Below the pieces are notes generated by a model, which saw nothing but the letters and a program-made list of their open reading frames with translations, was not told where the DNA came from and ran no database searches. The translations under genes and the position numbers were made by a program. Positions 6,892-64,000 of a stretch of 64,000 nt of DNA are shown one piece after another; the first letter of the stretch is position 1; each line of letters begins with the position of its first letter. The stretch covers positions 54,910 to 118,909 of the forward strand of contig JAAOMT010000474.1 in assembly GCA_016748015.1 (NCBI GenBank), written 5' to 3'. This DNA comes from Geosiphon pyriformis uo1 (Eukaryota > Fungi > Glomeromycota).

Positions 6892-6972
6892 TATTACTTG
6901 AAGAAAGAAAGCTTATCAAAGAAAAAAAGAAAAAACATGACCTAAAAAAAAANNNNNNNNNNNNNNNNNNNN

Positions 6973-15486: not shown

Positions 15487-15499
15487 TTATCTCCTTCTT

Positions 15500-27050: not shown

Positions 27051-27420
27051 CCAGACAATGCCCAAAAGTGGAAAAAAAGACTCCTTTCAACATATTGGTT
27101 TTACAAAATCAGAAAACAACTAGACTTAAAAAATCTATATAGAGACTACAATTAGAAAACTTTCAACAAAGAAGCAATACAACAAGTAGAAAAATTTGTA
27201 AGAAGAAGTAACTTGACATTATACTACAAAGCAGTATATCAATTATATGTTGTTTTCTGACATTGTCTAAACATACTATTGGATAAATTTTTAAAAAAGA
27301 TAACAGTCAACAACATAGAACAAATGACCAATCAACATAGTTGACATAATTATTAAACATTACACGAACAAAGTTCTATTAATAGACACAACTGATTTCA
27401 CAGAAGCTCAATATTAAAAA
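27050..27420 (+). pseudogene. Element A ORF3 C-terminal remnant
   Basis: FNKEAIQQVEKFVRRSNLTLYYKAVYQLYVVF...KITVNNIEQMTN aligns to ORF3 of B and G. Confidence 0.65.
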
Positions 27421-27432
27421 AGAAGAAAATAA

Positions 27433-28378
27433 TGTTACTTAAAAAAAGAAAGCTTATCAAAAAAAAAAGAAAAAAATGTGACCTAAAGAAAAACATAATG
27501 AAATATGAAGAGATACAGAATAATGCACAATAATGTCGAATAATGTATTATAATGTAGAATAATGTGTTATAATACAGGATAACACAGAATAACATGTTA
27601 TAATGTAGGATAACATGTTATAATGCAGGATAACACAGAATAACATATAATAACGTCAGATAACATGTTATAATATAGAATAATTAGTTAGAACATAAGA
27701 AAAACAAAGTGATAGCTAGCAAAAACAGATAATCCAAAACAATTTTGTAAAACTAGAAAATATGTATATATAGCAATAACATAAGAAACAGAAAAGAGAG
27801 AATCCTCAAACAAAAATTCATTAGTTATTGTTCTCTAGTTAGAAACTATATCATTTCAAATATCAATAAATATATTTATTCAACATCTTAAATTCAATTG
27901 CTCACTATTAATTTTAAATGTTGATAGTAATTAATACTTAAATCATGTGAGAACAATAACTTTTAATTATGGCTATTAATGAGATACTAACTTGTATTGC
28001 CTTGGCTTAATTTTCTTTATCTTTTTTTATTTTTTGGTATCTTGTTAGTAGTTTATTAAACTTTTTAAGAATCAAGCACTAAGTTATTAACATTAAGGAT
28101 TGTCTGGTAAAAGACCTCTACAAGTAGGTAGAATGTATAAGAATTATGGATTGCTTACCAGAGAATTGCCAGCCACTAAGCTGAGAAAAAAATTGACAGA
28201 ATTGTGATTTTGAGAAGCTACAAATAAAACAACATGGAAATTTCTGTCTATTATACAAAAAACTTAATTAAAACCTTCAGAATGCAAAAACCTTCAGATT
28301 ACTACCATTTTATATTAATTAAACACCAAGTTATGGGTTTGTTATTTATTCCAACTATTCAAATAATCATCTGTAACA
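27433..28378 (+). repeat. Element A 3' LTR (PPT immediately upstream)
   Basis: TGTTACTT...CTGTAACA preceded by AAAAAAGAAGAAAATAA. Confidence 0.92.
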
Positions 28379-30840: not shown

Positions 30841-32224
30841 TTTTTAAGATATCTAATAAAGTTTTAATCAAAAAAGTTTTTTTTATTGTAAAAGTTGTTA
30901 AACAGAATATTTTAGAGATTTTTTTTTAAATAATAAATAATAAAAAACTGTTTTTAATGATTATTAAAATATTTTTCTAATCTTTGGCTGGTTTTTTACC
31001 CATTAAATTTCTTTAAAAAGACATATTTGAATCAATTCTAATGTTTTTTCTACCTTTACTAAGAGTTCAAAAGTTTTTAATAATAGACTAATTAATAAAC
31101 TGGTTTTTTTAACTATTGCTGTTATTCTTAATACTATTAACATTATTTTTTTTAAAATAGCCAAAAAAACTAAAAATTCTAAAAAACAGAAGCAGTTATT
31201 TACTTCTGCTATTATTATACTAAATTTTTTTATAATTCTAAATAAAATCTTAGATAAAATTTCTATTGTATTATTTGACATATTATTTAAAATAAGCCAA
31301 AATTAACTACTAACTGTATTGCTAAATATAATATCTTTTAGCAAATTTTTGCTGGTTTTAAAAACAAAACAACAGTTTTTTATTGAATTATTTGTTTTTA
31401 GAAATTGGTTTAACTAAATAGAAACTAATTTATCATTACTTTTTTTGGTTTCAAATATTATTATTAGTAATAATTAAGAAATTATTACTAATTATCAAAT
31501 ATTTATTGAGTAGATAGCCTCTACTTTAGTCTTTAATACTAATTTTAAGAATAAATTAGCTTATATTAAGACTGTTTTTTAGTCTATACATGTTTTTTTG
31601 TGTGTAAAATCAGTTATAAAAAACAATATAAAGCTTTTTTATGTAAAATTTGCTTTTTAATAGTCTTTAAAAACTGGATTTTTGGTTAAGCTTAAGAGCT
31701 TTATTTGTTTAACTATTTTTAAAATTGCCAAATTTTTGGTGGTTTCTAAATCTGGTTTTTTTTACTGTTATTGTATTATATAATATGTCTTTAAGTATAT
31801 TTGTTATTAATATTAAAATAGCACTTAATATGTTTAGAAAAGTTATTTATATTGTACTGAAGTCTATTAATATTTGATAATATATAATTGTTTACTTTAA
31901 AAATTTAAATACTACTATATTTGCTTTGAATTATTGATTAGTTTTATTAAATAAAAATAATATTAAAATTTTTTTTTTGGTAAATTAAAATAAAACTATT
32001 TTGTTTTGTAATAAGTTCAAAACCAAATTGGTTAATTTTTTTTTAATTGCACTGTTTATAAAATTAGTAATATAATTTTTCAAATTAATGATCAGATTTG
32101 TTTTATTTTTTGTTTACCTGATTTTAATTGTTATTTTCAATTTGCTCTAATTATATTTAATTTACAGAGTAATTTAGATGTTGCTATTATTAGAATTAAT
32201 ATTTTAAAAAAATATTGTATTTGG

Positions 32225-33200
32225 TGTTACAAATAAAATTTTAGTTATTAATTAGCATAAAATTTTTTTATAATTTCTATTATTAATTAGCATATATTAT
32301 TATTATTCAAATTATTACTTATTGTTTAATCAAAAATTATTAAAGATTATTATTTAATTAATAACTTAATTTGTACAATAAAAATTAGAATGATTAAATT
32401 ACACAATATACTGAACTATATAATATCCAAAAATTTGCTAAAATTTGTAAAAATTTACCAAAATAGTTAATAGTTTAACAAAATAATGTGTAATTTATTA
32501 AAATATATTTTTAATTCATCAAAATTATAGCAAAGAAAAAAAGTTCAAATTTACAAACTAATACTATAATAAGTTGTATAAAAAAAAAGCTTTTTTCTTT
32601 AAGAAAATTTATTTTACCAAGAATTATCTTAGTTAAAATTAATTAAAACTTTTATATATTTTTACAAAAAAAACAAATAAAAATTAAAATAATTTGAAAG
32701 CCAAAAATTTTTAAATTATTTACACTTAAAATTCTTCAAAACTCAACTAATATTTTAAAATTAATTAACTACCAATTTCAGTAAACAATTAGTCTTTTCA
32801 AGTTTGAATTAAAAACAATTTTTGTAACAAAATCTTATTTCTTTTACTTTTTTTTAATTTTTTTTATTTATTTTTTATTTTTTTATTATAATTATTAAGG
32901 TATTCTACAGAAAAAATTCTGTAAAAAAGTTGATTTTTATAAAAAAAAGTATTTATACAATTTAGTAAGCTTTCAAACAAGCAATTCTTGAGAAAAAGTT
33001 GATATTTATTAGAAAATAACTATATAAAATAACTGACACAAAATTGGCCATTTTACTTATAAGTCCAATAATTTAAATTATAAGAGATAATTGGAAAATA
33101 AATTCAGTTATCAGAGATTTATTAGCTTTCAATAAACATAAATTAATAGCAAACTAATATTAATAATATTTAAAAAAAGAAACAAAAATCTTTAATAATA
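32225..33200 (+). repeat. Element C 5' LTR
   Basis: Starts TGTTACA. Its first roughly 190 bp match 41041-41232 and it aligns with the reverse complement of 54813-55792. Confidence 0.85.
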
Positions 33201-33244
33201 TTTAGTGTTCTTCCATAAATTAACATAATAACAACAACTTCAAA

Positions 33245-36200
33245 GTAGCAATTACATTTAACATAACAACTTTAAAATATTATTAGTTGATTTATACTTA
33301 CTGCAAGTAAAGATTTAATATCTAAGATGGAATTGAAGTTTTTAAGAAATCATTATACTAATATATTGAGAACTGTGTCAACAATTATTTTTTTAAAAAT
33401 TATAATATTTAAAAGTTAGAAACCACTTCTACAAAAACTTACTATATTATTTCTATTTAGAAACAAAAAACTTTAATAGTGAAACACTCAACACTTATTT
33501 TCAAGAACTCAACTTTAATATCATTTAATATTGTGAAAAAAAATATTTTGTACAATTCAAATTTTCTTTAGATATAAAATTAGAGCCTGAAAATAACAAT
33601 AAAAGAAAGCAAAAACAAAAACAAAACCTAAAAACAATCTACAACATACTAAAAATAACTGTCAAATACTTGTAAACATCTAAACAAGGAACCAGTATTA
33701 AATTATCATTCTTTGTTACACTATTTTCAATTTCATTTGCTTAACTGCAAACATCTAATTTATTTCTTATTCGATTTTTAAGACCAAAAAACTTTATTTT
33801 ACCAAAAAGCTCAATACAACAGCCAAAATTATTATCTACCAATACCAATCTTCTTGATTTTTTAGTAAAAAACCAAAATAATCACTTTAATAACAATAAA
33901 GACATTTCTGAATTTACAAAAAAAAAATATCAAAAATAAAGATATCAAAAATATAGCAACCATCTATATCACAAAAATTATTGAATTTATTGGAGAATAT
34001 ACTAATACAAATTCACAAAAATGGCTCAACAAAGTCTAAAAACAGGAGATGCAAATAAATAAAATGCAGTAAGAATGTTAAAAGCAATTCTATACTTTCT
34101 TTAAAAAACAGTAGACAAATAGTTTAAAAACTTGGCCAAACTCTTTAAAAACTGGCAAGCATTCAAAAATGCTTTTTAAAACAATTTGCTAATAATAATA
34201 TCTTTATTATTTTCTGAAATTAATTTCAAAACATTAAATAAAAATCTTTTGTATCTATTATAACCTATCTTAGAAAATTCAACAAATTTTTCTGACAAAT
34301 TTAACAAATTAAAAACCAATAGATATTATTCTAATGTTCAAATTTTGGATCAATTTATAGCTGCATTAAAAGATAAACTAATCAAAAAAGTTTGTTTTCA
34401 TGCTTTAGCAGACTTAATTATAGCCATTTAACATATAAAAAACTATAAAATAGCAATGAAAGAAGCAAATTACACTAAACTTATTATCCTTGCAATAAAT
34501 AAAACCAGCTCAGCAGCTAAAAAAAAAATTGATCAACTTGTAAAAAAAGTTGAAAACTATTTTACCAACCAATAATAACAGCAATAATAGAAATATTGAT
34601 CATTATAACAACAAAACTCAAACAACTTCTTACTATCAAACAGCCAAAACCAAAGTTGTCATTGTTGTAAAATTTCAGAACATTAGAAACAAGATTGCTG
34701 AAAAATATAACAAAACCAGTAGCAAAGAAATAATTAACATTATTCTTAACCACAACAAATCTATTATTAATCTTTACTATTATTTTACAATCTACCAAGA
34801 CCTTAATACCAGAACAATTATTATCAACTTGTTTTATAACCTAGTTAACAATAGTATCAACAATCACTAATTCAGTAATATTAAGTACTTGTTCAAAAAT
34901 TGGTTTAATAAAACCAATTTGCATTTTAGAATTAATTTATAACAAATAATAATAGATTTAATTTCAATAACTAATTAGTTTTCTGAAATCCAATTCAACA
35001 AAGACTTACATATTATTACACTCAATTTAGCTATCTTACAATACTAAAAAAATCAAATTTTTAGCAAACTGTATTTTCTGAAAGTAAAACTGCAGTCTTA
35101 AAACAAAACCTTTTTAGTAATACTATTTTACCAGCCCAAATTACCCAAAATATCAACTTTTTCAATATTTTTTTATTTAAATTCAAAACCAATAAATTAC
35201 TATTTTTATTTAGTAATATAGCAGTTATAAAACAAAAACCAATTACAATAATATACACCAAAGTTAAAGTTGAAGAAAAACCAATTTAATTAATTTTAAA
35301 CAATAAATTTGTCAAAAGCATTATTATATATTAATTAATATAACAACTTAAATAAAAAATTGACTAACTAGCCTGAACAGTTATTGTTACAGCCAATAAT
35401 ATAAAGAAAACTTTAGTAAAAAAAATTGATAATTTTTTTTATAATTAATAAAATTACTATTCCAGTTAAAGTTCTTGTCATGAATACATCTCAATACTAA
35501 GTTCTTGTTGAAAACAACTGGCTTTTCAAAGCCAATGCAAATTTAAATTAAAAAATCCAGAAATTCAAAATCTTATACCAAAGACAATACATCAGAGTAT
35601 TTGTTACTTATAATATTTTTAACAAATAATTGGAAAAAGCCTTTGTGTTTAAATTTAAAGAGGAGAAAAAAATGCTAATTACTAAAACTTATATGGCTTT
35701 TAAATTAACATCCAATTGGACTGAAAAAATAAAACAAAATTTTTTTAAAGAAACCAGTAATTTAAACAAAATTCAGTATTCCAAACCAGAACTACAAAAA
35801 CAGCTATCATATATTCTATTCAAATTCAAAAATTGTAACAAAAAACTTTTATTAATAAAAGTTTGTATATTATCAAAAAAAGAATATGAAATGTGTACTT
35901 GCTATTACTACAAAACCTACTACTATGAATAATTAGGATACTTCAAATAAAATAAAAAATAAAACAACACTTCTTGTCTGACTTGTGGAAAACTATTATC
36001 TAAAAAATATAACTGAATTAATGTTGCAATAAAAAAAAGATATGCAATTAAATCTGTCAATATGCTTTTTGAATATTAAAAAAAGTTTACAGAGAAATTT
36101 TTTTTGATGTAATATATAACAATATGCTCAACAAACTTTATTATTATCGATATAATGCTAAAATAATTTATAAACTAATCATAGCTTTAATTAATAAAGA

Positions 36201-39200
36201 AACTCAAGAAGATATTCACCAAATAAAAAAAGCTAAATATATTGAATACACTTTAGAAATTGTTAGATACAACTATGAAGATAAAGTAAAAGTATACTAC
36301 CAAATCACAAGTTACACTTATCTACCCAAAAAAGTTTAAATTTACTAATTAAAACAAATAAATATTTAACTATGTAAAAAATGTGTTATGTTTTATAATA
36401 ACTAATAGTGTCCAGAATATTATGTTTTTAGCATTTTCTTGTTTAGTGAAAATAACAAGCACAAAATTGAATTTAGAAAACCAAAACCAAAAAAAAAATT
36501 ACAATAACTCTAGTTTATTTTATTAAAAATTAGCTTGCTATACAACTTAAGTATTTTGACAATAATAATTAAGAAATCAAGTCAAAAAAACTCCATGAAA
36601 TTGATGCTAGATATAATCTACAATATCCAAACAAAAACACTTTAGTCTTCTAATCCAAATCTTTAATAAAAATTAATCTTAGAATTGCTTTTGAAATACT
36701 ACCAGAAATAATAGTCCAAATTGTTTTTTGATTATTTTTGGCCAGCAAAAAAATTAACATTAGAAAAAAGTTATCAATGCAGAATACATTAGAGACATTA
36801 CAATTATGCTGCAAAATAAAACTAAAAAACCATTAAAAATTGAACATGCTGAGAAAATTGCTTAAGTTATTTATTTATTTTTAATCAATATTTCGAGTTT
36901 ACAATTAGTTACAGCAAGAGAACAATTAGGAAAAAGTGAAAGAAAAATTCAAAATTTTGGTTCAACCAAACGATTTATAGTTTTAGTAAATATAGCTTTC
37001 AAAATACAAAATAAATCTTACTAATTATTATCTTATTTTTTGGAAAACATCATAAAATTTACATTTGTCCAAAACTTATTACCACTCAACAAATTTTTGA
37101 ATTAAATAAACAAATCTGTTTGAAACATAAAATTTTAATTTCAAATATTTATATTCCAAAAAGAATAAAAAAATTTCAGATTATTTTCTACAATCCTAAC
37201 AAATATTTTATTATTTTATTAAATAGATTAGAAATTGAAATTATATATAACAATATTTTCCAAAATAAAACCTCTCAAATTGTCTTTAATTTTATTAAAA
37301 TTGTAAGACATATACTATTTTCAAATCTAAATATTATTTCTAGTACCAAAAACTATCATATTATTGAAAAAAAACTTTCTTAAATCAACATAGATTCTTT
37401 GGAACTCCAACAACAAAAACAATTAAAACAATTAATTATTGAATATACTAATATATTTGTTAAAGATAACATGATCTTGAAAAAACAAATATTGTCCAAC
37501 ATAAAATTCATATAAGTGATACTCTACCAAAATACTAACAAGTTTACTGAATACTACCAACCAGCCATTAATTTATTAGAGAAAAAGTTCAACAAATGTT
37601 TAATAATAAATTCATCTAACTATTAAAAAGTTCATGGGCCTTATCAGTAGTTTTTATTAAAAAAAAATAACAAGATTAAATTCTATGTAAATTATTGTCA
37701 ACTTAACAGTATAATAATTAGAGATACATACCTTTTATCAAGAATAACAATATGTTAAATACATTAAAAAAAGCCAAATTTTTCTTAACTTTAGACTTAG
37801 AAAGCAAATATTAGCAAGTTGAAATAAATCTCAAAGACTATTTTAAAACATTATTTACAACACAAAAAAAACTATGAGTTTAATATTATGTTGTTTAAAC
37901 TTTACAATGCATTAACAATATTCCAAAAACTTATAGATATTATTTATAAAAAACTTTTATGACAATCAATAGTTGTTTATCTTAATAATACTAATATGTA
38001 TTCTCCAAATTTCAAAGCTTATTTAATTTACTTGCAAGAAGTATTTCAATAATTTCGAAAAACAAGATTAAAATTGAATATTAGAAAATGTTATTTTAGA
38101 AAAATAAGTTTGATTTTTATTGAATATATTGTTAGCAAGAATAGAATTTAATCCAATTCAAGAACAATTAGTGCTGTCAAAAACTTTTAATGTCACAAAA
38201 TACTAGAGAACTAAGAGAATTTATAAAATTGGCTTTTTATTATTAGAAATTTATCAAAAAATTTTCAGAAATTGCCAAACTACTTAACCATCTAACCAAC
38301 AAAAACATAAAATATTAATAAATATAAACCCAACAACAAACATTTAACACTTTTAAAAAAAAACTCATTACAACTCTAATTTTTGCTTATTTAGATTTTA
38401 GTAAAAGTTTTAGTTAACCATTAATGTTTCACATACAGCTTTTGGTGCTATTCAATCATAATTGAATAACAATAGCAATAAGTAAGTAATTATATATATC
38501 AATAAAACACTCAAGCCAATAGAACTCAAATATAACTCCACTAAATTAAAAACAACAGCTGTTATCTAGATTTTAAAATATTTTTAACAATATCTGCAAA
38601 ATAAAAAAAATTTTGATATTATAATTGACAACATTAGTCTTAAATAGCTTAATAAAAAAAGCTCTGAACTTAATGTAAAACAATTTCAATAGACTGATTT
38701 TTTTGTTAATTACAAATATATTGTATATTACAAATTAAGAAAATTACACACCAATGTAAATAGTCTTTTAAGAATAAGACAAAATTGATATTAACTTTAA
38801 CTCTACTAACTTAATAACAATAAACAATTAACAAACAATAGATCTCGAAAATTACAATAATATTAAAAATTATTTAAAGACTCTTATTATGTTAAAAAAC
38901 TTGTTCCAATTAAAAAACAGTAATTACAATACTAATTAAAACAATATTTCTTATACTACAACAAAATCTATTAATGAAATTACACAAACTTAACAAATCT
39001 ACTCAGATTAGTTCAACAAAATAAAAAAACTATATTATATAACATATATACAAATCTTTTATCAGCACACTTAGAAAAAAATAGTAAAATTTAAAGAACA
39101 CTTGAATTTTATTTTTGGCTATATATATATCAAAATATTTAATAATATATAAAATCATATAATAGTTATCAAAAAAGAGAAAACCTTAACTTATTAAATC

Positions 39201-40200
39201 TTTAAATCCAATTAAAGTTGAATAATCTTTTAATAAAATGAAAATCAATTTAGTTAGACCACTATTTATTACAACTTAAAAAAACTGTTATATTGCAGTT
39301 ACAGTAAATTATCTTATCAAATAGTCTAAAGTCAGAGCCATCTAAAAAGCAAACACAAAATTAATAACAAATTTAATTTATAAAAACATTATTTGTAAAC
39401 ATAAATATCCAATTAAACTTTTATTAAATCAAGAAATACACTTTGTAAATAACTTAATACAAAAAATTTATAAACAATTTAATATTAGAAGACTTTTATT
39501 ATTTTTGTATTACCTATAAACAAACGAACTTGTGGAATATTTTAACCAAACATTGTGTGAATTTTTAGCCAAAGTTTTAACTAATTTGAGCAAGAATAGA
39601 ATATTTTTATTCTATCAGTATTATTAATATATAGAACATTAAAACAAAATACTATAAAACACATATTATTTGACCTTATTTATAGAAAAACAGCAATATT
39701 ACCAATTAATTTTACTGTAAAAACATACTCAGCACAACTTATTACAGAAAAAAACTTTTAAAAAACACTTTAATAAAGAGTTTATACCTTTTTGAGTATA
39801 TTAGAAAGAAAACAATAAATTGTAATCATTTATATTAAACATTTTTAAGCTTAATAAAAAAAATAGCATAATAACAAATTGCTACCAGTTATCAACAAAT
39901 TTAGAATTAGAAACAAAGTTTTTATATACAAAACTAAGAATAAAAACCAATAGAATAAAAAATTCAAGCATAAATAAAATGGATCATTTTATATTCACAA
40001 AATTTTAGACAATAGATCATATAAATTAAGACTTAATAACAAAATTTTAGCCAAAGTTGCACATAGAAATTGATTGAAACATTATCATTTTAAAAACAAT
40101 TCTGAATTGTTAATTCTACAAATTAGTACATATTTTTTTTAATTAATTTTGAAAATATTTTTCAATATTTAGAATCAATAGTTATATTAAAACAATAACT
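33245..40200 (+). pseudogene. gag-pol: Element C gag-pol (gag, protease about 35250-35620, Cys-rich about 35820-36430, dUTPase about 36590-36970, RT about 37520-38350, RNase H, integrase about 38840-40200)
   Basis: ILDQFIAALKDKLIKKV, HEIDARYNLQY, NFGST, VYLNNT (eroded YLDD), and *NGSFYIHK (GPY/F). Confidence 0.85.
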
Positions 40201-40355
40201 AAACCTAAACATTTAATTTATTATTATCATAATATTTTTTTAATAATATACAAACATAAAAACAAAAATAGCAAATAATTACAAAAAAAACCCAAAATAT
40301 TTCTTTATTTTTTAAATTTTTTTCAAATTTTAATTTTAATTTAATTACTTTTATT

Positions 40356-41006
40356 ATGATTATTTTCCAAAACATTCAACAAATATCTCAAAAATTAATA
40401 ATAGTATTAAAAACACTCTTTGACTTATTTATAATAATTAATAAAAATCAAATTAATTACACTCAAAAAAAACTATGACACTAGTAGTTAATAATTTTCA
40501 AAATTATTATTTTTATAAAAAGAACACAAAAAGTTTTTCTAAAATTCAATTGTCAAAACTTTTAAAGCAAGCTTTAAAAAAGATTTTTATTTGCTTCTAT
40601 TAATATTTTACCAAATATTACAACTTAAAAAAAGCTATAACTATAGATTAGTAAACAAAATCATAAATATACTCCTATTTTTAGATATTTTCATATTAAA
40701 AAAATATTTTATAAACAAAAACTGGAACTTAAAACAACCAATCTTACTTTTAAAATAATACAAAAACAAATTTACAATAAATTCAAGATAACAGCTAGAT
40801 TAATAAACACTTATTACAAATTTAGAACAGTTCTTAGACTCTATGATTTATTTAATACTTGTAAAAATATTTTACAAAATTTAATACTTTAATTAAAAAA
40901 GATTCAATACATTGGCAAACTTATAGAATGGAAATTTCAACAATTTTCAAACCAAATCACATCAATTATTTTGGATCATTATTTTAATATCATAAAAAAT
41001 ACTTGA
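40356..41006 (+). pseudogene. Element C accessory ORF3
   Basis: MIIFQNIQQISQKLIIVLKT...QYIGKLIEWKFQQFSNQITSIILDHYFNIIKNT*, colinear with H ORF3. Confidence 0.68.
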
Positions 41007-41040
41007 ACTTTACTAAAACTTAGTCTTAAAGAGAAAATTA

Positions 41041-41232
41041 TATTATCAATAGAATTTTAATTATTAATTAGCATAAAATTTTTTTATAATTCTTATTATT
41101 AATAATATTTTATCATCATTCAAATTATTACTTATTATTTAATTAAAAATTTTTAAAGATTGCTATTTTATTAATAATTCAATTTATACAATAAAAATCA
41201 AGATAATTAAATTACACAATATATTAAACTAT
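41041..41232 (+). repeat. Element C 3' LTR, 5' portion
   Basis: Follows the eroded PPT, matches 32225-32419, and breaks at the element D insertion. Confidence 0.85.
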
Positions 41233-43549
41233 TGTTATTTATAAAATATAGAAATTATATATTAGTATACAAATTAGCCAATCAGAATAAGATGCAGTAA
41301 AAGTGGAATTTTAGAATTCCAGAATTACAGGATTCTAGTATAAAAAATTGTAGGATTCTAGAATTCCAGAATTTCTCTCAAGGAATTACAGGATTTCAGA
41401 AATTCTAAAATTTCTGGCTAGAAAATTGAGGAATTTAAGGAATCTCATATAATAAAATTTATGTATATATAATAATAGCATTGGAAATAAAAAAGACAGA
41501 ATTTTTAGTTTAGAACATCCAGTTTTAATTTTCCATCCATTTTTTCATACAATAATATTCTATGACTTGAAATAAAAACATCAAATATTAATAAAATACT
41601 TATTATTATTACAATCTATCTTTTTGCTGTCAACAAATTTATGTTAATAATTACTAATACTTAAATATACTGGACTAATAACTTTTGATCATGGCTTTTA
41701 ATGAAATACTAACTTTTTTTGTCTTGAATTATTTCTTTATTTTTTTTTCTTTATTTTTTTTAATTTTTTTTTTCATTGTTAATTTACTAATTGATTAAAA
41801 AGGATTAATATGTAGAGTACTAATGTTAAGATATAGTATTGGTAAAAGACCCAGAAATAAGAATAAATACTCAGAATTGAAAATAGCTTACTAGGAGATT
41901 ACTAGCCACCAAGCTGAGAAAAAAATTAATAAAATTGTAATTCTGGAAGACTACTGAAAACAAATATTAAATCTTTGTTCATTATACAAAAGACTTCACC
42001 AAAATCTTCAGATACAAAAATTTTCAAAAATTACCAACAATATTAGCCATTGAACACCAAATTACAGATTTGTTATTTGATTTGAGACCCCAAATAATCA
42101 TCTGTAACATTTGGTGCTCCTTGTGAAGTATAAATTTACAGAAAACCAGCACCAATAACAACTATTCAAAAGTGGCAGAATCTGAAAGAAAAAAAACAAA
42201 CCATCTAAAATTTGCCAAATTTTTATTTTAACACTACTGTCAACATTTGAGATTAACCAACAACCAACTATTCACAAAATCAGTCTTCAACTTTTACATC
42301 AACAAAAGAATTAAATATTTTTTGGGAGAACTAGTAAATACCAAATCAACAAGTGAAAATTTTTACAATAAATTAATTCAATACACCAGCTTACCAGTAA
42401 CTCATAATTTTGTTTTAATTATTATTAAAATCAACAGGAAAATTAAAAATCACATCCAATAAACATTTCCTATTACCTATACAGAAAAAGACAAAAAAAA
42501 ACTACAAACACCAACAGAAACCCCAAAGCAAATACAATTACCTACTTGAAAAAAACAAAAAATTGATTTATCTACTAATCTATCATATCATTATACACTC
42601 AGAAGTATCATCAATATAACATCAATAGGCATGTTCACAGCAAATATAACAACACCACTAAACAGAATTCTGTTTCAAAAAAAGCAGAATTATTAGAAAC
42701 CTATAATGATTATTTTAAAGGATTTAAATCATGATCACCAATGCCATTAGGATTTTGATTACCATCACCTTAACCAAATTTCAGAACTGCTAGTTTCTGG
42801 GAAGTAACAAAATCAGAAGAAAAAAAAGACAAAGATCAGGAATTTAATTATCAAAACATGATTTTGGAAAACCCAGAAATACAAACCCCAATCATTCCAA
42901 CTCAGAAAAATCAGAACAATCCAAACACTGCTCTTATTGTTCTCTACAACTTATCTCCAGTAATTGTGATCAATCCACTATCAATTATATTAATTGCCAA
43001 ACAACAATAACAGCCACAACTACTATCTTGGCAACTATTTCAACAACAACCACAACCACAATAACAACCATCATTATTAGCACTGATGGTCTATGCTCTA
43101 ATTGCCAAATTCAAAAAATTTACCAACAAAAAAGATAATGCTTAAGTATGGCTCAATAATGTGGAAAAAGCCATTACAGCCAATAGATAAAATAACACCA
43201 GAGCATTACAGACAATTTTATATTTTCTTTAAAATATTGCCAATTCATGATATCAAAGTCTGATCCAGAAACCCCAAGACTTCAAAGCATTTAAAATTGA
43301 ATTTTTGAGATATTTTAGTAATAACCATAGCATTAATTGCCTAGCAAATACTTTTACAATCATTAAATAAAGAAATACTGAAGCAGTTACCACTTACCTA
43401 GAACACTTCCATTGTAATCTATGCTAAATTCAAGCCATAGATACCAATTATTTTACAGTAGTGCAAATTTTAAATCAGATTATTTGCAAACTATACAATA
43501 GCATTTTACAATATGTACACTTATTATATCCGATCACCTTTTAAGCTGC
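41233..43549 (+). mobile_element. Ty3/gypsy element D, left part (5' LTR 41233-42109, PBS 42110-42128, gag 42172-43549)
   Basis: TGTTA...CTGTAACA, PBS TTTGGTGCTCCTTGTGAAG, gag homologous to A and B, cut by LTR E. Confidence 0.9.
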
Positions 43550-49777: not shown

Positions 49778-50555
49778 TGTTACAAGTGATTATTTGGGGT
49801 CTTAAATCAAATAACAAACTTATAACTTGGTGGTCAAAAGCTATGTATGTCAATGATGATCTGAAGATTTTGGTTGATAAGTCTTTTGTATAATAGACAG
49901 AGATTCAATAGTGATAGTATTGGTAATTTCTTTTTAGTTGTTTCCCAATTTTTTTCTCAGCTTGGTGGCCAGATTTATTCTGGTAGTTGTGCCCTTCTGG
50001 TAAGCTATTGGTTAATATATATATAATGTTACTCTTATTTCTGGATCTTTTACCAGGCTATTCATAACATCAATAACTTAGTGCTTTAATCTCTTAATCA
50101 ATTAGTATATAACAACAAAATCAAAGAAAAAAAAAGAAAAGAAAATAAAAAAAATAAAATAAATTAAGCCAAGGCAATAAACAAGTTAGTATTTCATCAA
50201 TAGCCATGATCAAGAGCTATTGTTCCAGTGTGGTTAAGTATTAGTAACTATCAATATAAAATATTAATAGTGGAAGTGGATTGGAGATAACAAATAGTTA
50301 TTTATTAGATGATTGTAATTTTGAAGATTGTTTAGATCAAATCTAAACTGAGAGATTTGTCTTTTTTGTTTCTAATGCTATTACTATATATACATAATTT
50401 GGGTTCTATAAGATTACTTATATTCTCGAGTAATGTGTTATAATTTCTCAAGCAATATGTTTACATGGATTACTACTACTTTCTTATTGGTCTATCTGTT
50501 TTTTCTATTATTTCTTGTATGCTTTTTCTTATGAGTAATATTATCTTCTTTTTTT

Positions 50556-51188
50556 AATATTGAGCTCCATCAAAATTTTCATTTTAAATTAGCTCTAATA
50601 CTTTTTTTTTAAGTATTGTTTGTTTAACTCTATTTTTTATGTCTTCTACTTATGCATTGTTTATTCTTCTCCATTGGTTAATGGTTATAGTTTCCATATC
50701 AGAATATAACAGTATTTTTGAATAGTTCTGAAATATGTTGTGTAATTGGTAAATTGTTCTCACACGTAGTGTTGAGTTTGTTTTTTTTCCAATAAATTCT
50801 TCAATTTGTTGTATTATGTTGTGGTTGAATATTTTTTTGGATTTGTTAATATACAACTTCTGAATATTCAACTTTTGATCTAATTGATAGTAGCAGTATG
50901 ATATTAGAAGTTGTTTTGTCTATTGCTTCCAATTTTTTTTGTAAGCTCTTCTGTTAGTGCCATAATAGGTATTTTCTCAAACATGTTCTTTACTTTTTCT
51001 ATTAAGTTATCTGACCAGTTTTTATCCTTTTTTGGTAGCTGCTAATATGGTGTATTCTTTGTCTTTCTTTTGGTGTTTTGATAGCAAATTGTTTGGTTGT
51101 TAATGACAATTTCCATGTTTAACTGTTGTTAACTTAAAGCCTAAAACAATTGTTGAGTTATAGTGTAAATATGATCTAGTATCTCCAT
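50556..51188 (-). pseudogene. Element G accessory ORF3
   Basis: Contains ORF-track 50650-50871 (NIQKLYINKSKKIFNHNIIQQIEEFIGKKTNSTLRVRTIYQLHNIF...). ATG at 51188. Confidence 0.72.
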
Positions 51189-54812: not shown

Positions 54813-55792
54813 TGTTACTGGAGGTTTTTGGTCTCTTCTTAGCTCTTGTAAACTGTGTTGTAATGCTGTTAATTCATGCTTATGGGAAGTGCTTGAACCT
54901 CTGATAACTGAATCTATTTCTTCAAATTATCTCCTATAATTTGAACTGCTGGGCTTATAAGTGGAATAGCCAATTCTGTGCCAATTACTTTATGTAATTA
55001 TGTTGTAGTAAATGTCAATTCTTTCTCAGGAATTGCTTGTCTAAAAGCTCACTAAAAATATGTAGTTACTTTGTTGTGAAAGTCAACTCTTCTACAGGAA
55101 TCTCGTCTGTAGGCTATCCTAATGATTATAATAAGAAATAAAAGAAAATAAAAGAAATGTAAAAGAAATTGAATTCTGTTAAGGGAAACGTTTTCTATTC
55201 AGGCCTGGAGTCATTAACAGTTTACTGAAATTGGTAGCTAATCAATTTCAAAATGTTAGTTGGGATTTTTAGGTGTTATTGCAAGTGTAATAATTAAGAA
55301 TTTGATTTTTCAAATTGATATTTATTTCGTTTTTGTGTGTATAGAAATAATTCTAATTACTAAATCTAAAGTAAGATACATTTTCTCGAAAAGAGAAGCT
55401 CCTTTTTTATACAACTTGTCGTAACACTATTCTATGAACTTGAACTTTTGCTATTTCTACAATTTCGCTGAACTAAAGATACATTTCAGCAAACTACAAG
55501 TTATTTCTGCGAACTATTAGATATTTTAGTGAACTATCAATTATTTCGACAAATTTCTACAAATTTTGGCAAACTTTTAAATGTTACATAGTTTGGGGTA
55601 TTGCATGATTGATTGTCGCAGTTAGATTACATTTGTATTATGTACAACTTGGATTATTAATTAAATAATAATTTCGGATATTTTGCTAATATAATAAGTG
55701 ATAATTTGAAATGATAATATATGCTAATTAATGATAGGAATTTATAAGGGTAATTTTATGCTAAATAATATCTCTAATTTTATCTGGTAACA
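54813..55792 (-). repeat. Element H 3' LTR
   Basis: TGTTAC...GGTAACA, matches 63718-64000. Confidence 0.92.
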
Positions 55793-55826
55793 TAACCTCC
55801 TCCTCAAGACTGAGCTCCGTCAAAAT

Positions 55827-56484
55827 TCAAGTACTGTCTGTAATTTCCAGATAGTAGTCCAAAATGATTGAAGAAATTTAGTCTGAAAATTGTTGAAATT
55901 TCAGTTCTGTGAGCTTTCCAATGTATTGAATCTTCAAGGGTTGTAAAATTGGGTTTTGTAAGACATTTTCACAGGTGTAAAATAGGTTATAAAGTCTAAG
56001 AGCAGCTCTTAGTTTATAGTGGCTGTTTGTAGGTCCAGCTGTTGTCTTGAATTTGTTGTAGAGTTGTTTCTGAATAACTTCTTTTGTAAGGTTTGCTGCT
56101 ATAAGCTCCAGTTTTCATTTGTTCATAAAGTGTTTTTCTAATGTAAAAATATCTATATATTGGGGGGTATTTGCTGTTTTCCTCATTAAGACACAGTTGA
56201 AATTTTTGTTAAACAGTAGCATTTGGTGGAATACTAATAGGGATGAGCAATAAGTTTTCTCTTAAAGCAAGCTTTAAAAGTTCTGGTAGATGAATTCCAG
56301 AATAACTTCTTGTGTCCTTTTTATAGGGGTAATACTTTCATGAATCTGGGGCTAGATTTGTAACTATTTCTGTTTGGGTATAATTAATATGTTTTCCTGT
56401 AATAGTAATAAATAATTCGGGTATTGTCTTTAAAGCTAGCATTAATTTTTGAAATAATTGTTAAATGTTTTGAGGGATAGTCAT
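55827..56484 (-). pseudogene. Element H accessory ORF3
   Basis: MTIPQNI*QLFQKLMLALKTIPELFITITGKHINY...KLRAALRLYNLFYTCENVLQNPILQPLKIQYIGKLTEL...YYLEITDST*. It has stops and at least one indel. Confidence 0.72.
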
Positions 56485-56639
56485 TATAAAGGAATTGAAA
56501 TGAAAGAAAAATAAATTGAAATTATTTTTGGTGTGTGGGTTTTTATGTTTATTTTTGATTTTGTTTTCAGTGTTTTTGTTATGTTTTTGTGGAATCATTT
56601 CTAAATTATAAGAGAATAACTATAGTAAATTTAAATTAA

Positions 56640-59600
56640 GTGTTCAAGTTAAGAGGTTGTTCAATAACAACTATTGGTTCTAAGTTTCAGGGAATATCTT
56701 TAGGATTGATTAAAGAAGAATGTGTACCAATTTGTGGAATTAATGGTTCAAGATTGTTTCTGGAATTATACTGTTTCAAACAATCTCCATGTGCAACTTT
56801 TGCTAAGATTTTGTTATCAAGTTTTAGCTTGTATAATTCATTGCCTAGAACTTCATAGATAAAGAATGGTCCATTCTATTTATTTTCAAATTTTCCACTC
56901 TATTGTTTTTCAGTCTTAGTTCTATGTAAGAGAACCTTGTTTCTAACTTTAAATTTGTTGGTAACTGGTGGCAATTTGTTGTTATGCCATTCTTTTTGTT
57001 GAGCTTGGGAGTGTTCAATGTGGGTTGCTGCTATTTGTTGTTTTCCTTCTAATGTGCTAAGCAGCGTGTAGGCTTTTTGTTATAGTGTTTCTTAAAAGTT
57101 GTCTTCATTAATTGGCTGTACTGGGTATGTTTCCACCATGAAACTAATTGGTAACGTTGCTGTTCTTCTATAGGTTAAATCAAATGGTGTGTGTTTTGTG
57201 GTATCTTGTTTTAGTGTTCTATATGCTAATAATACTGATGGAATAAAGATATCTCATTCTTGTTCAAAATCAGTTGAGACTTTGGCTAATAACTCACATA
57301 ATGTTCTGTTAAAATGTTCTACAAGTCTATTTGTTTGTGGATAGTAGGGCGAAGACAGAGGTTTTTTGACATTGAACTGTTCACAAATTTCTTGTATCAA
57401 GTTGTTCACAATATGTGTTCCTTGGTTGGATAAAAATTCAATTGGGCATCTATGTCTACAAATAATGTCTTCATAAATGAAGTTTGCTACTGATTTCGTA
57501 TCTGCTTGTTGAATGGCTCTGGCTTTGGGCCATTTGGTAAAATAGTCTACAGCTACTGCAATATAATGATTTCCTTAATTGGTGATAGGTAGTGGTTCAA
57601 CTAAATCGATACCAACTCAGTCAAAAGGCTGTCCAACTTTGATTAGGTTTAAAGGTTTTGTAGGGCGAGTTTCTCTTTTTCTTTGACAATTTTCATAAGA
57701 TTTGACATATTTATGAATGTCTCTTCTCATTTGGGGCCAAAAGTAGTGTTCTAATGTTCTTTGGGTAGTGCTATTTTTTCCTAAATGTGCTGATAAAGGG
57801 TTTGAGTACATGTTGTATAAGATAGTTTCCTTCTCATTTTCCTGTATTAATCTGAGTGGTTTGTCTGAGTTTCTGAAGTTTTGATAATAAATGGTGTTGT
57901 TGTGTAGAAAATATTGTTTGGTTTTTTGTTGTAATTGGTGTTTTTCATCTGAAGACCAATCTGTTGCGATTGTTAGTGTCTCCAAATATTGTTTGAGATT
58001 GTTATAGTTTTCAGAGTTCATTGTTTGTGGCTGTCTTTGTTGGTTGAGTTGAGTGTTGGCTTGTGTTTTTCTAATCATGCCTCATTCTTGAGAGACAGTC
58101 AACATTGGTGTGAAGTTTTTCTGGTTTGTGATGCACTATATATTGATAGTTTGCTAAAAATCCTATCCATCGGGTTTGTTTTGCATTGAGTTAGGTGTTT
58201 TTGTTCTGAAGCCATTTAAGTCCAATATTATCAGTAATAATATCGAATTCTTTGGATCTGAGGTAAAGGTTGAAGTGATATAGGGCCCAGATTACTGCTG
58301 CAATTTTTAATTCCATTGCTGGATAGTTTTTCTTGGCTGGTTTTAGTGTTCTATTGGCGTAAGCAATTACTTGTTCATTTCCATTGTCATCTAACTGTAA
58401 TAGGATGGCACCAAAAAGCAGTATAAGAGGTATCTGTTGCTAACCAAAATTGGTTGCTGAAATCTGGGTAGGCAAGAATTGGAGCTGTTGTGAGTTTTTT
58501 CTTAAGTATTTCGAAGGCATTTTGATGTTCTTCTGTCTATTTGTATTCGACGTTTTTGGTGGTCAGTTGGTTGAGAGGTATTGTGATTTCTGAAAATTCT
58601 TTAATGAATTTTCAATAATAGAATGCTAATTTAATAAATCCTCTTAATTCTGTGATGTTTCAGGAAGTCTTGAAGTTTTTGACTGTGCTGATTTTTGCAG
58701 GGTCAGGTTTAATTCTATCTTTGCTAACAATATGACCAAGAAAGGCCAGACTTGTTTTTCCAAAGTAGCATTTTTTAATGTTCAGTTTCAATTCTGCTTT
58801 TCATAATCATTGAAAAACTTTTTGCAGGTGAATTAAATTTAACTTAAAAGATGGTGAATAAACATCAGTATCATCTAGATAGACAACTACTGATTTCCAA
58901 AGGAGGCCTTTGTATACAACATCCATGAGTCTTTGAAATGTTGCAGGTACATTGTATAATTCAAAAAGCATTATGTTGAACTCGTAATTTTCTCCTTGGG
59001 TGGTGAAAACTGTTTTGGGGCAATCTTTGGGATCCATGGCAACTTGCCAGTATTCGCTTTCTAGATTTAGTGTTGAAAAGTATTTGGACTTTCCAAGGGC
59101 ATCCAACATGTTATCAATTCGGAGAAAAGGGTAGGCATCTCCAATGGTGACACTGTTGAGTTGTTGATAATCAACACAAAATCATATCTTTCCATTTTTC
59201 TTTTTAACTAGGACCACAGGTGAGGCCTATGGGCTCATTGATGGTTGAATAAGCCTGTTGTTAAGCATTTGTTGTACTTCTTCTCTGATAAATTGGTGAC
59301 TTTCTGGAGCAACTCAGTAGGCTTGTTGTTGTCTTGGTTTGGCATTTCTTATATAGATTTGGTGTTGAACCAAATTGGTTCTTCCTAAGTCATTGTTGTT
59401 TTCAGCAAAAATATCAGCAAATTCTGCAATTAGCTCTTTGAGCTGGCTCTGTTGTTGTGGTTCAAGTTGTCTCATGTTGATTCGAGATAGTTTTTCCATA
59501 ACAACATAGTAGTTTTCAGAACTGAAGTTTGGGTTGTTTTTTGGTAGTGAATGTCCAATGATCTCCGAGAAATTGAGAACTGTCTAGGGTAATTCTTGTT

Positions 59601-62600
59601 GAAAGATGTTACTGTAAATGACTCCAATTTCTACATTATTTAATAAAACTATCAGATAATTGTTGAGATTGTAAAAAGTAACTCAGACTTTCTTTGTTCT
59701 TTCTGGAATATAAATGTTTGGGATCGAGATATTATGTTTCAAGCAGATTTGCTTATTGAACTCAAAAATTTGTTGTGTGGTTGTTGGCTTTGGGCAGGTG
59801 TAGATTTCCGGATGTTTTCCAAAGAGTGAAATAGTAATTAGTTGTGGAAGTCATAGAATCTGGTGAGATTCACTTTGTTCATTAAGAGCTATGTTTACTG
59901 GAACTGTAAATTATCCAGTTGAACCAAAACCATTGGTTCCTCTTTGATTGACTAATTGTAAACCCGAAATGTTGATTAAGGGTAAATAAATAGCTTGAGC
60001 AATTTTTTCGGTATGTTTAATTCTAAACGGTTTATCAGTTTCATTTTGTAACATAATTGTGATGTCTCCTGTATATCTGGCATCAATGATTTCTTCTCTA
60101 ATACTGATTCTTTTGCTTGCCAAGGATGATTGAGAAGCAATTTGAATCATTGCTCTTGGTGAGATTTCAAAGGTGATTCTGAAATTGATTTTTGTAAGAG
60201 ATTTGAGAACAAGAATATCCTTGTCTGGATATCTTAGGTCATATCCAGCATTAATTTCATGTGCTTTTTTGGGTTTTATTCCTTGTCTATTGTTGTTAAA
60301 GTATTTGAGTTGTAAGGCAGGCTGATTTTCGATGAAATAGATGGGTGTTGTTTCAATTTCTTCTGTTGCTTCAGGTTCTCCAAATTCAATTTCATTTTCA
60401 TTGTTTTCATTAGGCAGGAGAATGTTAAGAGCATAGCATTTAGGGCACCATTGCTCATCACAAGGCATTATGCATTCTTTACACAATTTAATGTTCATTT
60501 ACTTTAGCCGTTAAGCTTGAGCTTTTTTGGTCAGGTAAGTGTGACTGACAATTTGGTAATATACTTCTATTTCATCTTTGTAGTTGTATCCAGCAATTTC
60601 AAAGATGTATACAATGTATTCTGATTCTTTCATTTGACAAACATTTTTTTGAGTGGCTCCATTGATTAAAGCCATTGCTAGATCAAAAATCATTTCAGCA
60701 TTGTGAGGGTAATGATACAGTTTGTTGAGGGCGCTGTTGTAAGCAGCATCGAAAGGAGTTCCTCTTTTGACTTTTTCTGAAATCGATAAAGCATATTGAC
60801 AGGTTTGATCGCAGACTCCTCCTCTCATTGCTACATCAATCCAATTGTATTCTTCTGGTAGTATATTTCCACAAGTCAAACAAAGGGTGTTGTTCCATTT
60901 TCCACTTCTTTTTATTAGATGACCTCATCATTCTTTGTGACAAGCCTTGCAGTAATAACAAGTATGATTTTTATATTCTTCTTCAGGTAAAATACAGGCT
61001 CCTATTGATAAGAGTTTTTTGTGGTAATCTTTGTATTTGAGTGGAATATAAGAGCATTGTTTCCATGGTTTTGGTTTTAAATAGGGAACATTCCATCTGG
61101 GTGTCACTGGTTTTTTTGTTTTAAGAGGATTGTTTGTTAAAAAATACTGTTGTTCAGTTTCATCAGCCCAATTGGAGGTTGATCCAAGTGCCATAAATGT
61201 TTCAATAATGGGCTTTTCTTCTTCTGGTTCGAATTCAAAAGCCGAGGCTTTTTCAAAGCATTTGTTGAATGTACTACAAGTGGCAGATATCCAGACGTGT
61301 TGTCCTTGATAGAAGATTGTTAACTCTTGTATTTTCCAATTCAGATTAGCATTGGCTTTTTGGAGTCAATCATTTCTGACGAGAGCTTGGTATTGGGGAG
61401 CATTCATTACAAGAACTTTGACTGAAATGGTGATTCCATCAAGAGTAAATAGAAAATTGTCAATTTCTCCTATTAGAGTCTTTTTCATGTCATCAGCAGT
61501 AATGATTACTGTTTGAGCTGATTGGTTGACATTTCTCTTTAACTGTTGCATTAACTGGTAGGTAATAATGCTTCCAGCGGATCCACTGTTTAGGATCAAG
61601 TGAATTGCCTTTCCTTCGACTTCTGCTTTAGTGTACATAGCAGTGATTGCTTTTTGTTTGTTGGCGGCTGCATTGCTAAGCAGGAATGGTAACTTATTTG
61701 CTTCAAACTCAAAAGAGAATATATCTGAAAGGTTGGCATTTTCAGTAATTCTGGCTGGTGGAATTGTGGTAGAAGTATAAAAAGGGTTTTGTTGTGCTGC
61801 AGCTCTACCTTCCGAGAGTGCAGTATGGTAAAAATTCTGTTCTTTAGGTATTGTAAGATAGCTAGGTTGAGTACAATAATAGGTGGATCTTGGCTGAACT
61901 GGATTTTGGGGAATTAATTGGTTATTTAGATTGATTTTGTTGTTGTTTGTTGCGAATCAGTTTTATGGTGCAAATTGGTTTTGTTAAACCAATCTTCAAA
62001 CAGATACTTGGTAATGTTGAATGGGTTGTCAATACTGTTGTTGCATTGGCTGTGGAGCAGGTTGATAGTAGTTGGTTTGATATTGTGGTCTTGGTGGATA
62101 GTAAGCTGGTAGTAGTGATGGTTGATAATAAGATTGTTGTGGTGAAGGGTAACGTTGATTACTCCTGTTTTGTTGGTCTTGTTATAGCTTTCTGCAATCT
62201 CTTTTCCAATGGCCAGAGATTCCACAGTAATGGCAATTCTGAGGCTGGTTATTAAAGGATGATATGAAGTTGTTTTGATTTCGTTTTTGGGGTGGTTGAT
62301 ATCTTTGGGGTTGCTATTGTTGTTGGTTGGTGAAATAGTTTTCAACTTTCTTTGTAAGTTGGTCAATTTTCTCTTCAGCTGCTAAGCTGGTTTCTCCAAT
62401 AGCTAAGTTCACGAGTTTTGTATGATTGGCTTTTTCTATGGCCATTTCATATCTTTTTGCATGCTGAATGGCAGAGTTTAAATCTTCTGGGACATGTGGA
62501 CAAACTTTTTTAATTAGTTTATCCTTTAAACCAGCGATAAATTGTTCCAAGATTTGAGCATCAGAATAATAATCATTTGTTTCGAGTTGGCGAATTCATC

Positions 62601-63672
62601 TAAGAAGTTTGTTAAATTTCCCAATATAAGTCATAACAGATTCGGAGGGTTTTTGTTTGATATTTCGAAAACAATTACGAAGGGTGATAGAGGTATTATT
62701 GTCAGTAAACTGTTCAAGAAAGGCTGCTTTGAAAGCATTCCAATCATTGAATGGGACAGCCAAGTTTTTAAACCATTCTTCTGCTGTTCCTTTAAGAAAG
62801 TAAAGAATTGTTCTTAACATTCTGGCAGCATTCCATCCATTTGCATCTCCAGCTTTAGTAACTTGGTCGAGCCATTCTTGGGGACTGGTCTTAATATCTT
62901 CTCTATTGAATTCAGGGATTTTTGCAATGTATGTTGTCATTTTATCTTCTTTGTTTCCACTGTCTATTGATTCTTCTTCAGTTATTTCAGAGTTGTTTTC
63001 TTTGTTTGCTGCTGTCTCAGAGTGTTCACTTTGATTTTCAGCTAGAAAATCAAGGAGATTGGAACTAGTTTGAAGGGGTTTTTGTTGTCTGATAGGACTT
63101 CTGAATGATGTAAAATCTTCTGGTCTTGCAAATCAATTCAAGGGTGAATTAGGTGTTTGTGCTTATACAAGTGAAGCTAGAAAAGATGTGATAGTAAGTG
63201 GAAGTTTTGAACTGGTTCCTTGTTTAGATGTTTGTAAATGTTTGGCAATTGTTTTTGGTAGTGTTGGAGTATTTGGGGTGGTTCTTGAATATTGCTTTAA
63301 TTTGTTTTTGTCTTTGTTGCTTGTTTCTGTTTCCAATTCAAAATCAATAGTGTATTGAGACTGTACTGGATATGTTTCTTCACAGTATTTGATAATGTTA
63401 AAATTAAGTTCGTGAAAGTAAGTGGCAAGTGTTTCACTGTTAAGGTTTTCAGTTCCCAACTGTGAATAGTGTGTTAAATTATTGTAAAAGTTGCTTCTAA
63501 CTTCTGAGATATTGTAATTTTCAAAAAGATAATTGTTGATGCAGTTTTCAATGTATTGGTATACTGATCTCTTGACAACTTCAATTCTGTCTGGAATGTT
63601 GAATCTTTGCTTGCAGTGGGTGTAAATTGATTGGTAATACTCTAGAGTTGTTGTGTCTGGTGTGGTCACCAC
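56640..63672 (-). pseudogene. gag-pol: Element H single-ORF gag-pol: N-terminal domain, capsid, zinc knuckle, protease, Cys-rich domain, dUTPase, RT, RNase H, integrase (GPY/F, no chromodomain)
   Basis: Nine ORF-track fragments from 63672 to 58807 share one frame. Motifs: IPEFNRED..PQEWL, CHYCGISGHWKRDC, LILNSGSAGS, AGYDL...GFGSTG, YLDD, NGPFFI. Confidence 0.93.
59911..60275 (-). pseudogene. dut: dUTPase domain of element H
   Basis: AGYDLRY, SQSSLASK, IIDARYTGDI, EKIAQAI and RGTNGFGSTG: all five trimeric dUTPase motifs. Confidence 0.93.
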
Positions 63673-63717
63673 TTTGAAGTTGTTTTTGCTGTGTTGTTTC
63701 CATGAGAGAGCACCAAA

Positions 63718-64000
63718 TGTTACCAGAGATTTTTGGTCTCTTTTCTTAAATGTTGTTGATGCTTGTTTGCTGTGAATTCACATTTTCTGGATGTGGTTGA
63801 ACCTTCAATAACTGAATTTATCTTCAAATTATCTCCTATAATTTGAACTGCTGGGCTTATAAGTGGAATGGCCAATTCCGTGCCAGTTACTTTATGTAGT
63901 TATGTTGTAGTAAACATCAACTCTTTCCCAGGAATTGCTTGTCTGGAAGCTCACTAAAATGTATAGTTACTTTGCTGTGAAAGTCAACTCTTCTACAGAA
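63718..64000 (-). repeat. Element H 5' LTR (partial)
   Basis: Starts TGTTACC next to the PBS and aligns with 54813-55098. Confidence 0.92.

Follow-up and report, generated by a model that had tools for sequence, protein, structure and literature searches.

A third gene behind the integrase of Ty3/Gypsy elements in Geosiphon pyriformis and its possible role in regulating the LTR

Several of the LTR retrotransposons in a 64,000-nt stretch of the Geosiphon pyriformis genome, referred to here as the window, carry a reading frame in the env position, behind integrase. The questions raised by this locus are whether the frame, designated ORF3, is a gene, whether divergent families share it, and what its product might do. 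An earlier note, made from the DNA alone, had proposed a soluble accessory protein kept by selection.

The LTR elements of the window are decayed and stacked one inside another. The host elements belong to Ty3/Gypsy (Metaviridae), with gag, protease, RT-RNase H and integrase in that order and with flanking LTRs, PBS and PPT. Element H, which lies on the minus strand, encodes gag, protease, dUTPase, RT-RNase H and integrase. Its gag region (62185–63777; PF03732, E 4e-12) and its RT and RNase H region (58083–59445) are broken, and the dUTPase (59911–60276; PF00692, E 2e-17) occupies the interval between protease and RT. The integrase (56693–58024) comprises a zinc-binding part, core and SH3 tail, and starts past the stop that closes RNase H. 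The 3′ LTR (54813–55792, 980 nt, TG...CA) has an end that matches the 5′ LTR end at 63718–63998. Closure of RNase H by a stop, with integrase in its own frame, is seen both in H (58024–58083, minus strand) and in an independent element, L002. Frames resembling dUTPase were noted, by look only, in other elements near 19569–19880 and 25182–25568. Between the protease and dUTPase of H, positions 60511–61365 (minus strand) hold approximately 280 codons with Cys-rich stretches and no Pfam match above noise, possibly an unknown domain within pol. At 4242–9683 a direct duplication of 2711 nt with 100% identity, its copies separated by a 20-N gap, is probably an assembly artefact.

ORF3 copies and their intact relatives

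An ATG-led homologous frame follows the integrase stop in elements H, C, B and G, and element A retains a C-terminal remnant. Five elements with a separate ORF in the env position had been claimed. This description holds for the first four; in A an internal deletion has taken out integrase and leaves only the remnant, which abuts the RT/RNase H region at 27044, so that its post-integrase position is not visible within the window. The copies of H (55761–56484, minus strand, 239-aa type) and C (40356–41060, plus strand, 235-aa type) belong to family 1, those of B (15500–16136, minus strand, 211-aa type) and G (50554–51188, minus strand) to family 2, and that of A (27048–27417, plus strand) to family 3. 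The length of about 210 codons given in the earlier note fits the B/G family (211 aa), whereas the H/C family has 235–239 codons. The frames of family 1 also reach further than had been supposed: instead of stopping before the PPT, the real frames of H (56484–55761) and C (40356–41060) cross it and end inside the 3′ LTR. The quoted peptide VRTIYRLHNIF turned out to be a mixture of B and G sequences.

None of the five window copies is an open frame; all carry stops plus frameshifts or slips. The H copy is interrupted by five internal stops and, near codon 122, by one frameshift, and it matches residues 1–122 of the Geosiphon protein P0104 at 80% and residues 123–239 at 84%. The C copy, heavily AT-shifted, is broken by frame slips and, in the frame that was read, by 10 stops; it aligns with P0100 at 52% over 239 columns. 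Six stops and one frameshift interrupt each of the B and G copies, that of B terminating just ahead of the PPT, and the A remnant contains stops and one slip.

A protein search with ORF3 returned 220 matches. The best 120 of these 220, together with 41 from another search, are all Geosiphon pyriformis gene models, and they reach 90% identity to the H ORF3 fragment among the matches listed. Ungapped 239-aa proteins of the H type number 23 among the best 120 of the 220 matches; intact proteins likewise represent the 235-aa C type (P0100) and the 211-aa B/G type (P0050). Conserved stops or frameshifts, which the earlier note had named as a sign against a gene, were thus not encountered. A whole-library profile search yielded 73 representatives at E ≤ 0.001 and added two Geosiphon lineages (P0182/P0183 and P0204/P0214) and three metagenomic lineages (P0201, P0203 and P0225, with P0231 as a full-length cluster member of P0225). 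The ORF3 protein is common to at least five Geosiphon and three metagenomic lineages, between which pairwise identity is mostly 20–37%, several of the alignments being weak or short. No ORF3 relative was detected in the viral contigs or plasmids searched. The protein atlas provided no usable match for the H fragment; for P0050 its top match, at 0.94 but with low recognition, was a cluster made up mainly of Mucoromycota, which is a lead only.

Direct tblastn comparison of the broken window copies gave no link from H/C to B/G/A at E 0.05 among the matches listed, and intact relatives are therefore needed for the cross-family link. P0050 (B/G type) aligns with P0104 (H type) at 23% identity over 211 aa (E 1e-7) and with P0036 (A type) at 38% (E 3e-26), and P0104 aligns with P0036 at 28% (E 5e-8). 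A profile built from ten non-Geosiphon proteins placed the five window copies at ranks 1–5 (H 50, B 41, C 27, G 25 and A 17 bits); as controls, the best match elsewhere in the window scored 11 bits and the reversed window 6.6. A profile without family 1 recovered H at 23 bits and C at 21 bits, and a family-1-only profile recovered A (9.8 bits) and B (8.4 bits) weakly and missed G. The claim that ORF3 can be aligned across families is borne out by the intact relatives and by the profile devoid of Geosiphon sequences, and, as judged by these sequence comparisons, ORF3 is homologous between the families. The N-terminal part of the non-Geosiphon profile gave 9–11 bits on the RT start at 59116–59445, 18757–18996 and 26139–26342 (reversed control 6.6); these matches are probably due to chance.

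Position, gene end and flanking DNA

Of the chimeric gene models, 29 include an integrase piece, and in 27 of these it lies upstream of the ORF3 part. A metagenome scan, for which a DNA motif at the PPT/LTR border served as query, returned eight loci, two of them real: L002, and L008, which shares its LTR. No ORF3 was found by profile in the other six, most of which hold bacterial or phage-like genes. The layout of L002 is RT-RNase H, stop, integrase, a 316-nt spacer, an intact 230-aa ORF3, PPT and LTR. Its RT-RNase H is closest to Ty3 RT (E 6e-47) and its integrase has one internal stop. The placement of ORF3 in sense orientation within the interval from integrase to the 3′ LTR is general.

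The end of the gene takes two forms. In families 2, 3 and 5, ORF3 ends just ahead of the PPT. In family 1 and in L002 the bases at the PPT border are read in another frame and ORF3 runs through the PPT into U3, with the family-2/3 ending and its stop still encoded in the alternate frame. These bases are kept in two reading frames, and the last bases of ORF3 are therefore conserved as DNA. A short motif with a palindromic core is located just ahead of the PPT at 55788–55818 (minus strand, at the 3′ LTR border of H, a segment that includes the PPT at 55796–55805), 15488–15515, 50540–50570, 27400–27437 and in L002. The sequence pattern suggests a cis element adjoining the PPT, possibly for plus-strand priming or RNA handling.

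The spacer between integrase and the ORF3 ATG of H (56485–56639, minus strand) is AT-rich and consists of a C/A-rich tract followed by a pyrimidine tract, a layout similar to that of L002. No splice acceptor was found directly before the ORF3 ATG in the spacers of H or L002. In L002 a GCCCT-containing motif has two copies in the spacer between integrase and ORF3, five in the LTR and another three in pol, and was not found in the H spacer; it is a weak hint of an internal promoter in L002. In the 3′ half of the H LTR (54813–55150) there are coding-looking stretches into which some Geosiphon gene models (e.g. P0161) splice and which could represent a first exon or a small ORF. This half has no match to the ORF3 profile, and within the window no LTR-embedded ORF3 copy was detected above noise.

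Repeat arrays in the LTRs next to ORF3 lie upstream of TATA-like boxes, and their unit differs from family to family. The array of H (55443–55575, minus strand) has a 10/20-bp period and offers candidate binding sites. That of B (15265–15415, minus strand) is composed of 41-bp units with palindromic 17-mers, that of A (27513–27684, plus strand) of about 17 copies of a 10-bp unit, and the array in the 5′ LTR of C (32428–32525, plus strand) again has a 10/20-bp period. A 10-bp period was detected in five of six U3 segments (matched by at most 9 of 200 shuffles), in none of six coding controls and in both of the LTR 3′-half controls; the U3 of G has no such period. Repeats in U3 are common among LTRs and may bind host factors.

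Selection, decay and the predicted protein

Selection was estimated from the window pairs H/C and B/G. Over 215 codons of ORF3, H and C show a transversion pN/pS of 0.31 (45 non-synonymous and 21 synonymous changes), compared with 0.20 for pol and with 1.34 and 2.28 for the shifted frames; the binomial p is ~ 5e-5, calculated from rounded values. B and G differ by four non-synonymous and three synonymous transversions, too few for a selection test. Transitions between H and C are near neutral, with pN/pS of 0.76 in ORF3 and 0.90 in pol. Among the 23 full-length copies, a single C>T or G>A change accounts for 381 of 572 departures (background share 14%), and CpG is depleted in the coding parts of the elements (observed/expected 0–0.32). 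The near-neutral transitions, the C>T/G>A excess and the CpG depletion fit decay after insertion. The transversion constraint combined with the later decay therefore assigns selection to active lineages and not to the window copies. ORF3 is a real gene under purifying selection, as had been proposed, with the qualification that selection acted while the lineages were active and that the window copies are now decaying. Across 29000–42000 the G+C content drops to 9–22%, and C>T/G>A mutation is far heavier in element C than in its relative H, which suggests that methylation-driven or RIP-like decay was locally heavy around C.

The highest 19-residue Kyte-Doolittle mean ranges from 0.27 to 1.29 in the 11 ORF3 proteins compared, and by this hydropathy measure none of the 11 has a transmembrane or hydrophobic signal segment, in agreement with the earlier note. 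Pfam gave no family at its cut-off over the ORF3 part, including 50 members (25 of 53 families among the matches listed), and NCBIfam and PHROG gave only weak, single-lineage matches. NCBIfam FtsQ (11 of 50 members, 19.5 bits against a cut-off of 366) and phrog_23683 (13 of 50 members) were matched in family 1 only and were taken as chance, and Pfam TTC3_9th (19 bits against 27) was matched in family 2 only. Profile searches against PDB sequences yielded nothing below E 0.08. The match to a described Env or accessory family that the earlier note had contemplated was not found; no described family was matched.

AlphaFold2, with a 50-sequence alignment as input, produced a full model with a mean pLDDT of 76 and pTM of 0.62, in which residues 91–210 form a confident helical core (pLDDT 84–95 per block). 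The predicted core corresponds to P0104 residues ~ 91–215 and, modeled alone, has a mean pLDDT of 84 and pTM of 0.73. The N-terminal helix and β-hairpin are of low confidence, and residues 39–60 are disordered. The protein thus appears soluble by hydropathy and largely helical by AlphaFold2 prediction, and not Env-like, much as the note had envisaged. Foldseek searches of PDB and viral libraries gave no match at E ≤ 0.001. VIA-align reached a Z score of at most 4.3 with the full model and 6.0 with the core, in both cases under the tool's meaningful level, and the N-terminal 80 residues were barely covered. Fold searches with the predicted models neither exclude a known fold nor show a new one.

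Conserved over eight lineages are the hydrophobic core, an aromatic cluster (Y110/Y112/F113) and G116, as well as K150, N152, R/H156, R/K158 and R162 within one turn and helix. No catalytic set of Asp/Glu/Cys/His or Ser-His residues is conserved over these eight lineages, and an enzyme is therefore unlikely; among the Pfam matches listed for 50 members there was neither a DEDDy exonuclease nor a GDSL esterase. The overall charge varies, with a pI of 8.9–9.3 in three Geosiphon proteins and 4.9–5.9 in six others.

Several weak matches involve helix-turn-helix (HTH) or DNA-contacting domains. DUF1016_N scored 12.9 bits, weak and below its cut-off of 32.8, and was matched weakly in two of 50 members (E 0.03–0.12). 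The ORF3 model aligned with Spo0J at a Z score of 3.4 and RMSD of 5.4 over 93 aligned residues, and the core with the Orc6 C-terminal domain at a Z score of 6.0 and RMSD of 3.8 over 73, both under the tool's meaningful level. In the alignment of ORF3 with the DUF1016_N/ParB-type HTH (PF17761, PF17762), similar spacing is seen for four features: a helix with the aromatic-x-I-G pattern, the helix after it, a turn with Gly, and a basic helix closed by an aromatic pair. Profile comparison with ORF3 was, however, not significant. Using hhalign profiles of 36 DUF1016_N and 30 ParB sequences, with 23 close relatives left out, the ORF3 core scored 21.1 over 59 columns against DUF1016_N (probability 6%; best of 40 block shuffles 20.9) and reached 0.4% against ParB, whereas the positive control, DUF1016_N against ParB, reached 80%. 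Because the core scores approximately as the block-shuffled controls do, homology to DUF1016_N/ParB is not established.

Possible functions of the ORF3 protein

Extra ORFs in the slot between integrase and the 3′ LTR are already known; the ORF3 protein itself is uncharacterised. In the available part of Vicient and Casacuberta (2020, PMC7264820), the extra sense ORFs that lie downstream of pol, before the 3′ LTR, are env-like, and some encode transmembrane domains, and Grande gene23, RIRE2, Retand and Boty have soluble nuclear aORFs in antisense. ORF3 resembles the aORFs described there in being family-wide and 3′ internal, in having no host-gene similarity and in its proposed accessory role, but it is sense, soluble and fungal. 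The ORF3s of bdelloid rotifers encode Env, small membrane proteins, GDSL esterases or DEDDy exonucleases, according to the portion of Rodriguez et al. (2017, PMC5408684) at hand. Those elements also bear dUTPase and a non-Env third ORF, but the Geosiphon ORF3 matches none of the Pfam families given in that portion and is without a conserved catalytic set. For fungal Gypsy elements, the legend to Figure 3 of Novikova et al. (2010, PMC2864245) mentions additional ORFs of unknown function, and PosPlaTy3-5 of that survey has, like H, a dUTPase between protease and RT. In its accessible sections the survey spans 25 species without Glomeromycota, and its 'add. ORF' is set beside ORF3 by description only. 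No account of the ORF3 protein was found in the literature, repeat databases (Repbase/Dfam) and subscription papers being outside the scope.

We favor, with a probability of roughly 35%, the reading that the ORF3 protein binds nucleic acid and regulates the LTR of its own element. The protein would be expressed separately from its own ATG, through an internal promoter, splicing or re-initiation, and would bind its own LTR, keeping the element expressed against host silencing. Nucleic acid may be bound via the basic helix 153–167, past the conserved turn 149–152, and the family-specific U3 arrays might be recognised in the manner of VANC or of foamy-virus Tas. The conserved aromatic and basic pattern points to nucleic-acid binding: the conserved basic residues lie on one helix, and the weak HTH and DNA-contact hints all have one direction. 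The family-specific arrays and the CpG depletion are consistent with this reading, as is the action of methylation and small RNAs on TEs in the related Rhizophagus, reported in the available part of a preprint (bioRxiv 10.1101/2021.03.30.436303). Nonetheless, the HTH link is not significant, the structural matches remain below the meaningful level, overall charge is not conserved across lineages, and the 10-bp signal is present in the LTR 3′-half controls and absent from the U3 of G. A more specific form, in which ORF3 binds the LTR sequence-specifically as a transactivator or anti-silencing factor, perhaps with a new fold, and co-evolves with family-specific U3 arrays whose units are one helical turn apart, is doubtful. 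VANC proteins are the anti-silencing proteins of VANDAL elements (Hosaka et al. 2017, PMC5735166, as far as its available text extends). They likewise diverge fast, are element-encoded and stand beside family-specific tandem repeats, a likeness that is a functional analogy only; VANDALs are plant DNA transposons, and binding or demethylation by ORF3 would follow solely by analogy.

ORF3 might instead be a protein partner of the particle or pre-integration complex, such as an integrase cofactor, a targeting factor or a nuclear-import aid replacing a chromodomain. It lies directly behind a separate integrase ORF that has an SH3 tail and no chromodomain match, the aromatic cluster and long C-terminal helix of the model would suit a protein interface, and ORF3 and pol rank alike (L002 against H/B: integrase 59/52%, ORF3 30/25%). 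However, the conserved residues of exposed type are mostly basic and on one helix, and the divergence rate of ORF3 is roughly double that of integrase (20–37% compared with 52–59% identity), for which an arms race is a better fit than a fixed enzyme partner; we regard this role as unlikely. Basic and aromatic conservation fits RNA equally with DNA, and an RNA-binding factor, whether a small-RNA silencing suppressor or a Rev-like export or packaging aid, might read the motif by the PPT, which is kept as DNA in two reading frames. The targeting of TEs by small RNAs in Rhizophagus (10.1101/2021.03.30.436303, available part) and the fast divergence of ORF3 would agree with such a factor. Yet no RNA-binding family was matched in Pfam, NCBIfam or PHROGs, and the N-terminal helix-hairpin-helix is of low confidence and without a conserved basic second helix; we hold this role to be about as unlikely as that of a protein partner.

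Small helical retroviral accessory proteins act in various host-range or housekeeping ways, and the overlap of family 1 with the PPT and U3 resembles the position of nef. By such analogies ORF3 could be a degradation adaptor, an aid to nucleus-to-nucleus movement in coenocytic hyphae or a copy-number restriction factor; no tool result singles out any of these, there is no supporting motif and no signal or membrane segment, and roles of this kind are less probable still. The env position and orientation of ORF3 would suit a degenerate Env or Env-like fusion protein, but none of the 11 proteins has a hydrophobic segment, and ORF3 measures only 211–276 aa, has no conserved cysteines and matches no Pfam Env family. 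Given the lack of a transmembrane stretch and of any family in Pfam, NCBIfam or PHROG, ORF3 is not taken for Env, a reading we hold to be very improbable. It is just as improbable that there is no gene and that a conserved non-coding 3′ region translates by accident. All five window copies are broken, and at the last few codons it is the DNA, not the protein, that is constrained, but the excess of synonymous transversions is frame-specific, full-length copies are ungapped, similarity of 20–37% persists at the protein level, and the ORF3 of L002 is intact though its integrase has a stop. For the body of ORF3 the non-coding reading is refuted.

Accessory genes other than env are known in LTR retrotransposons, though most of them lack an explanation and few come from fungi. 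ORF3 is old, as indicated by 20–37% identity over at least eight lineages, and selected, and the intact natural proteins, the confident core model and the candidate target arrays make its function directly testable. Well over a hundred Geosiphon 'hypothetical proteins' (at least 161) are transposon genes or chimeras and not host genes. If the ORF3 protein is a nucleic-acid-binding regulator, it would represent a new type of accessory factor among retrotransposons. If it is an LTR transactivator, it would be the retrotransposon counterpart of VANC and of the transactivators of complex retroviruses, and could explain the expansion of these elements in the heavily methylated genomes of Glomeromycota.
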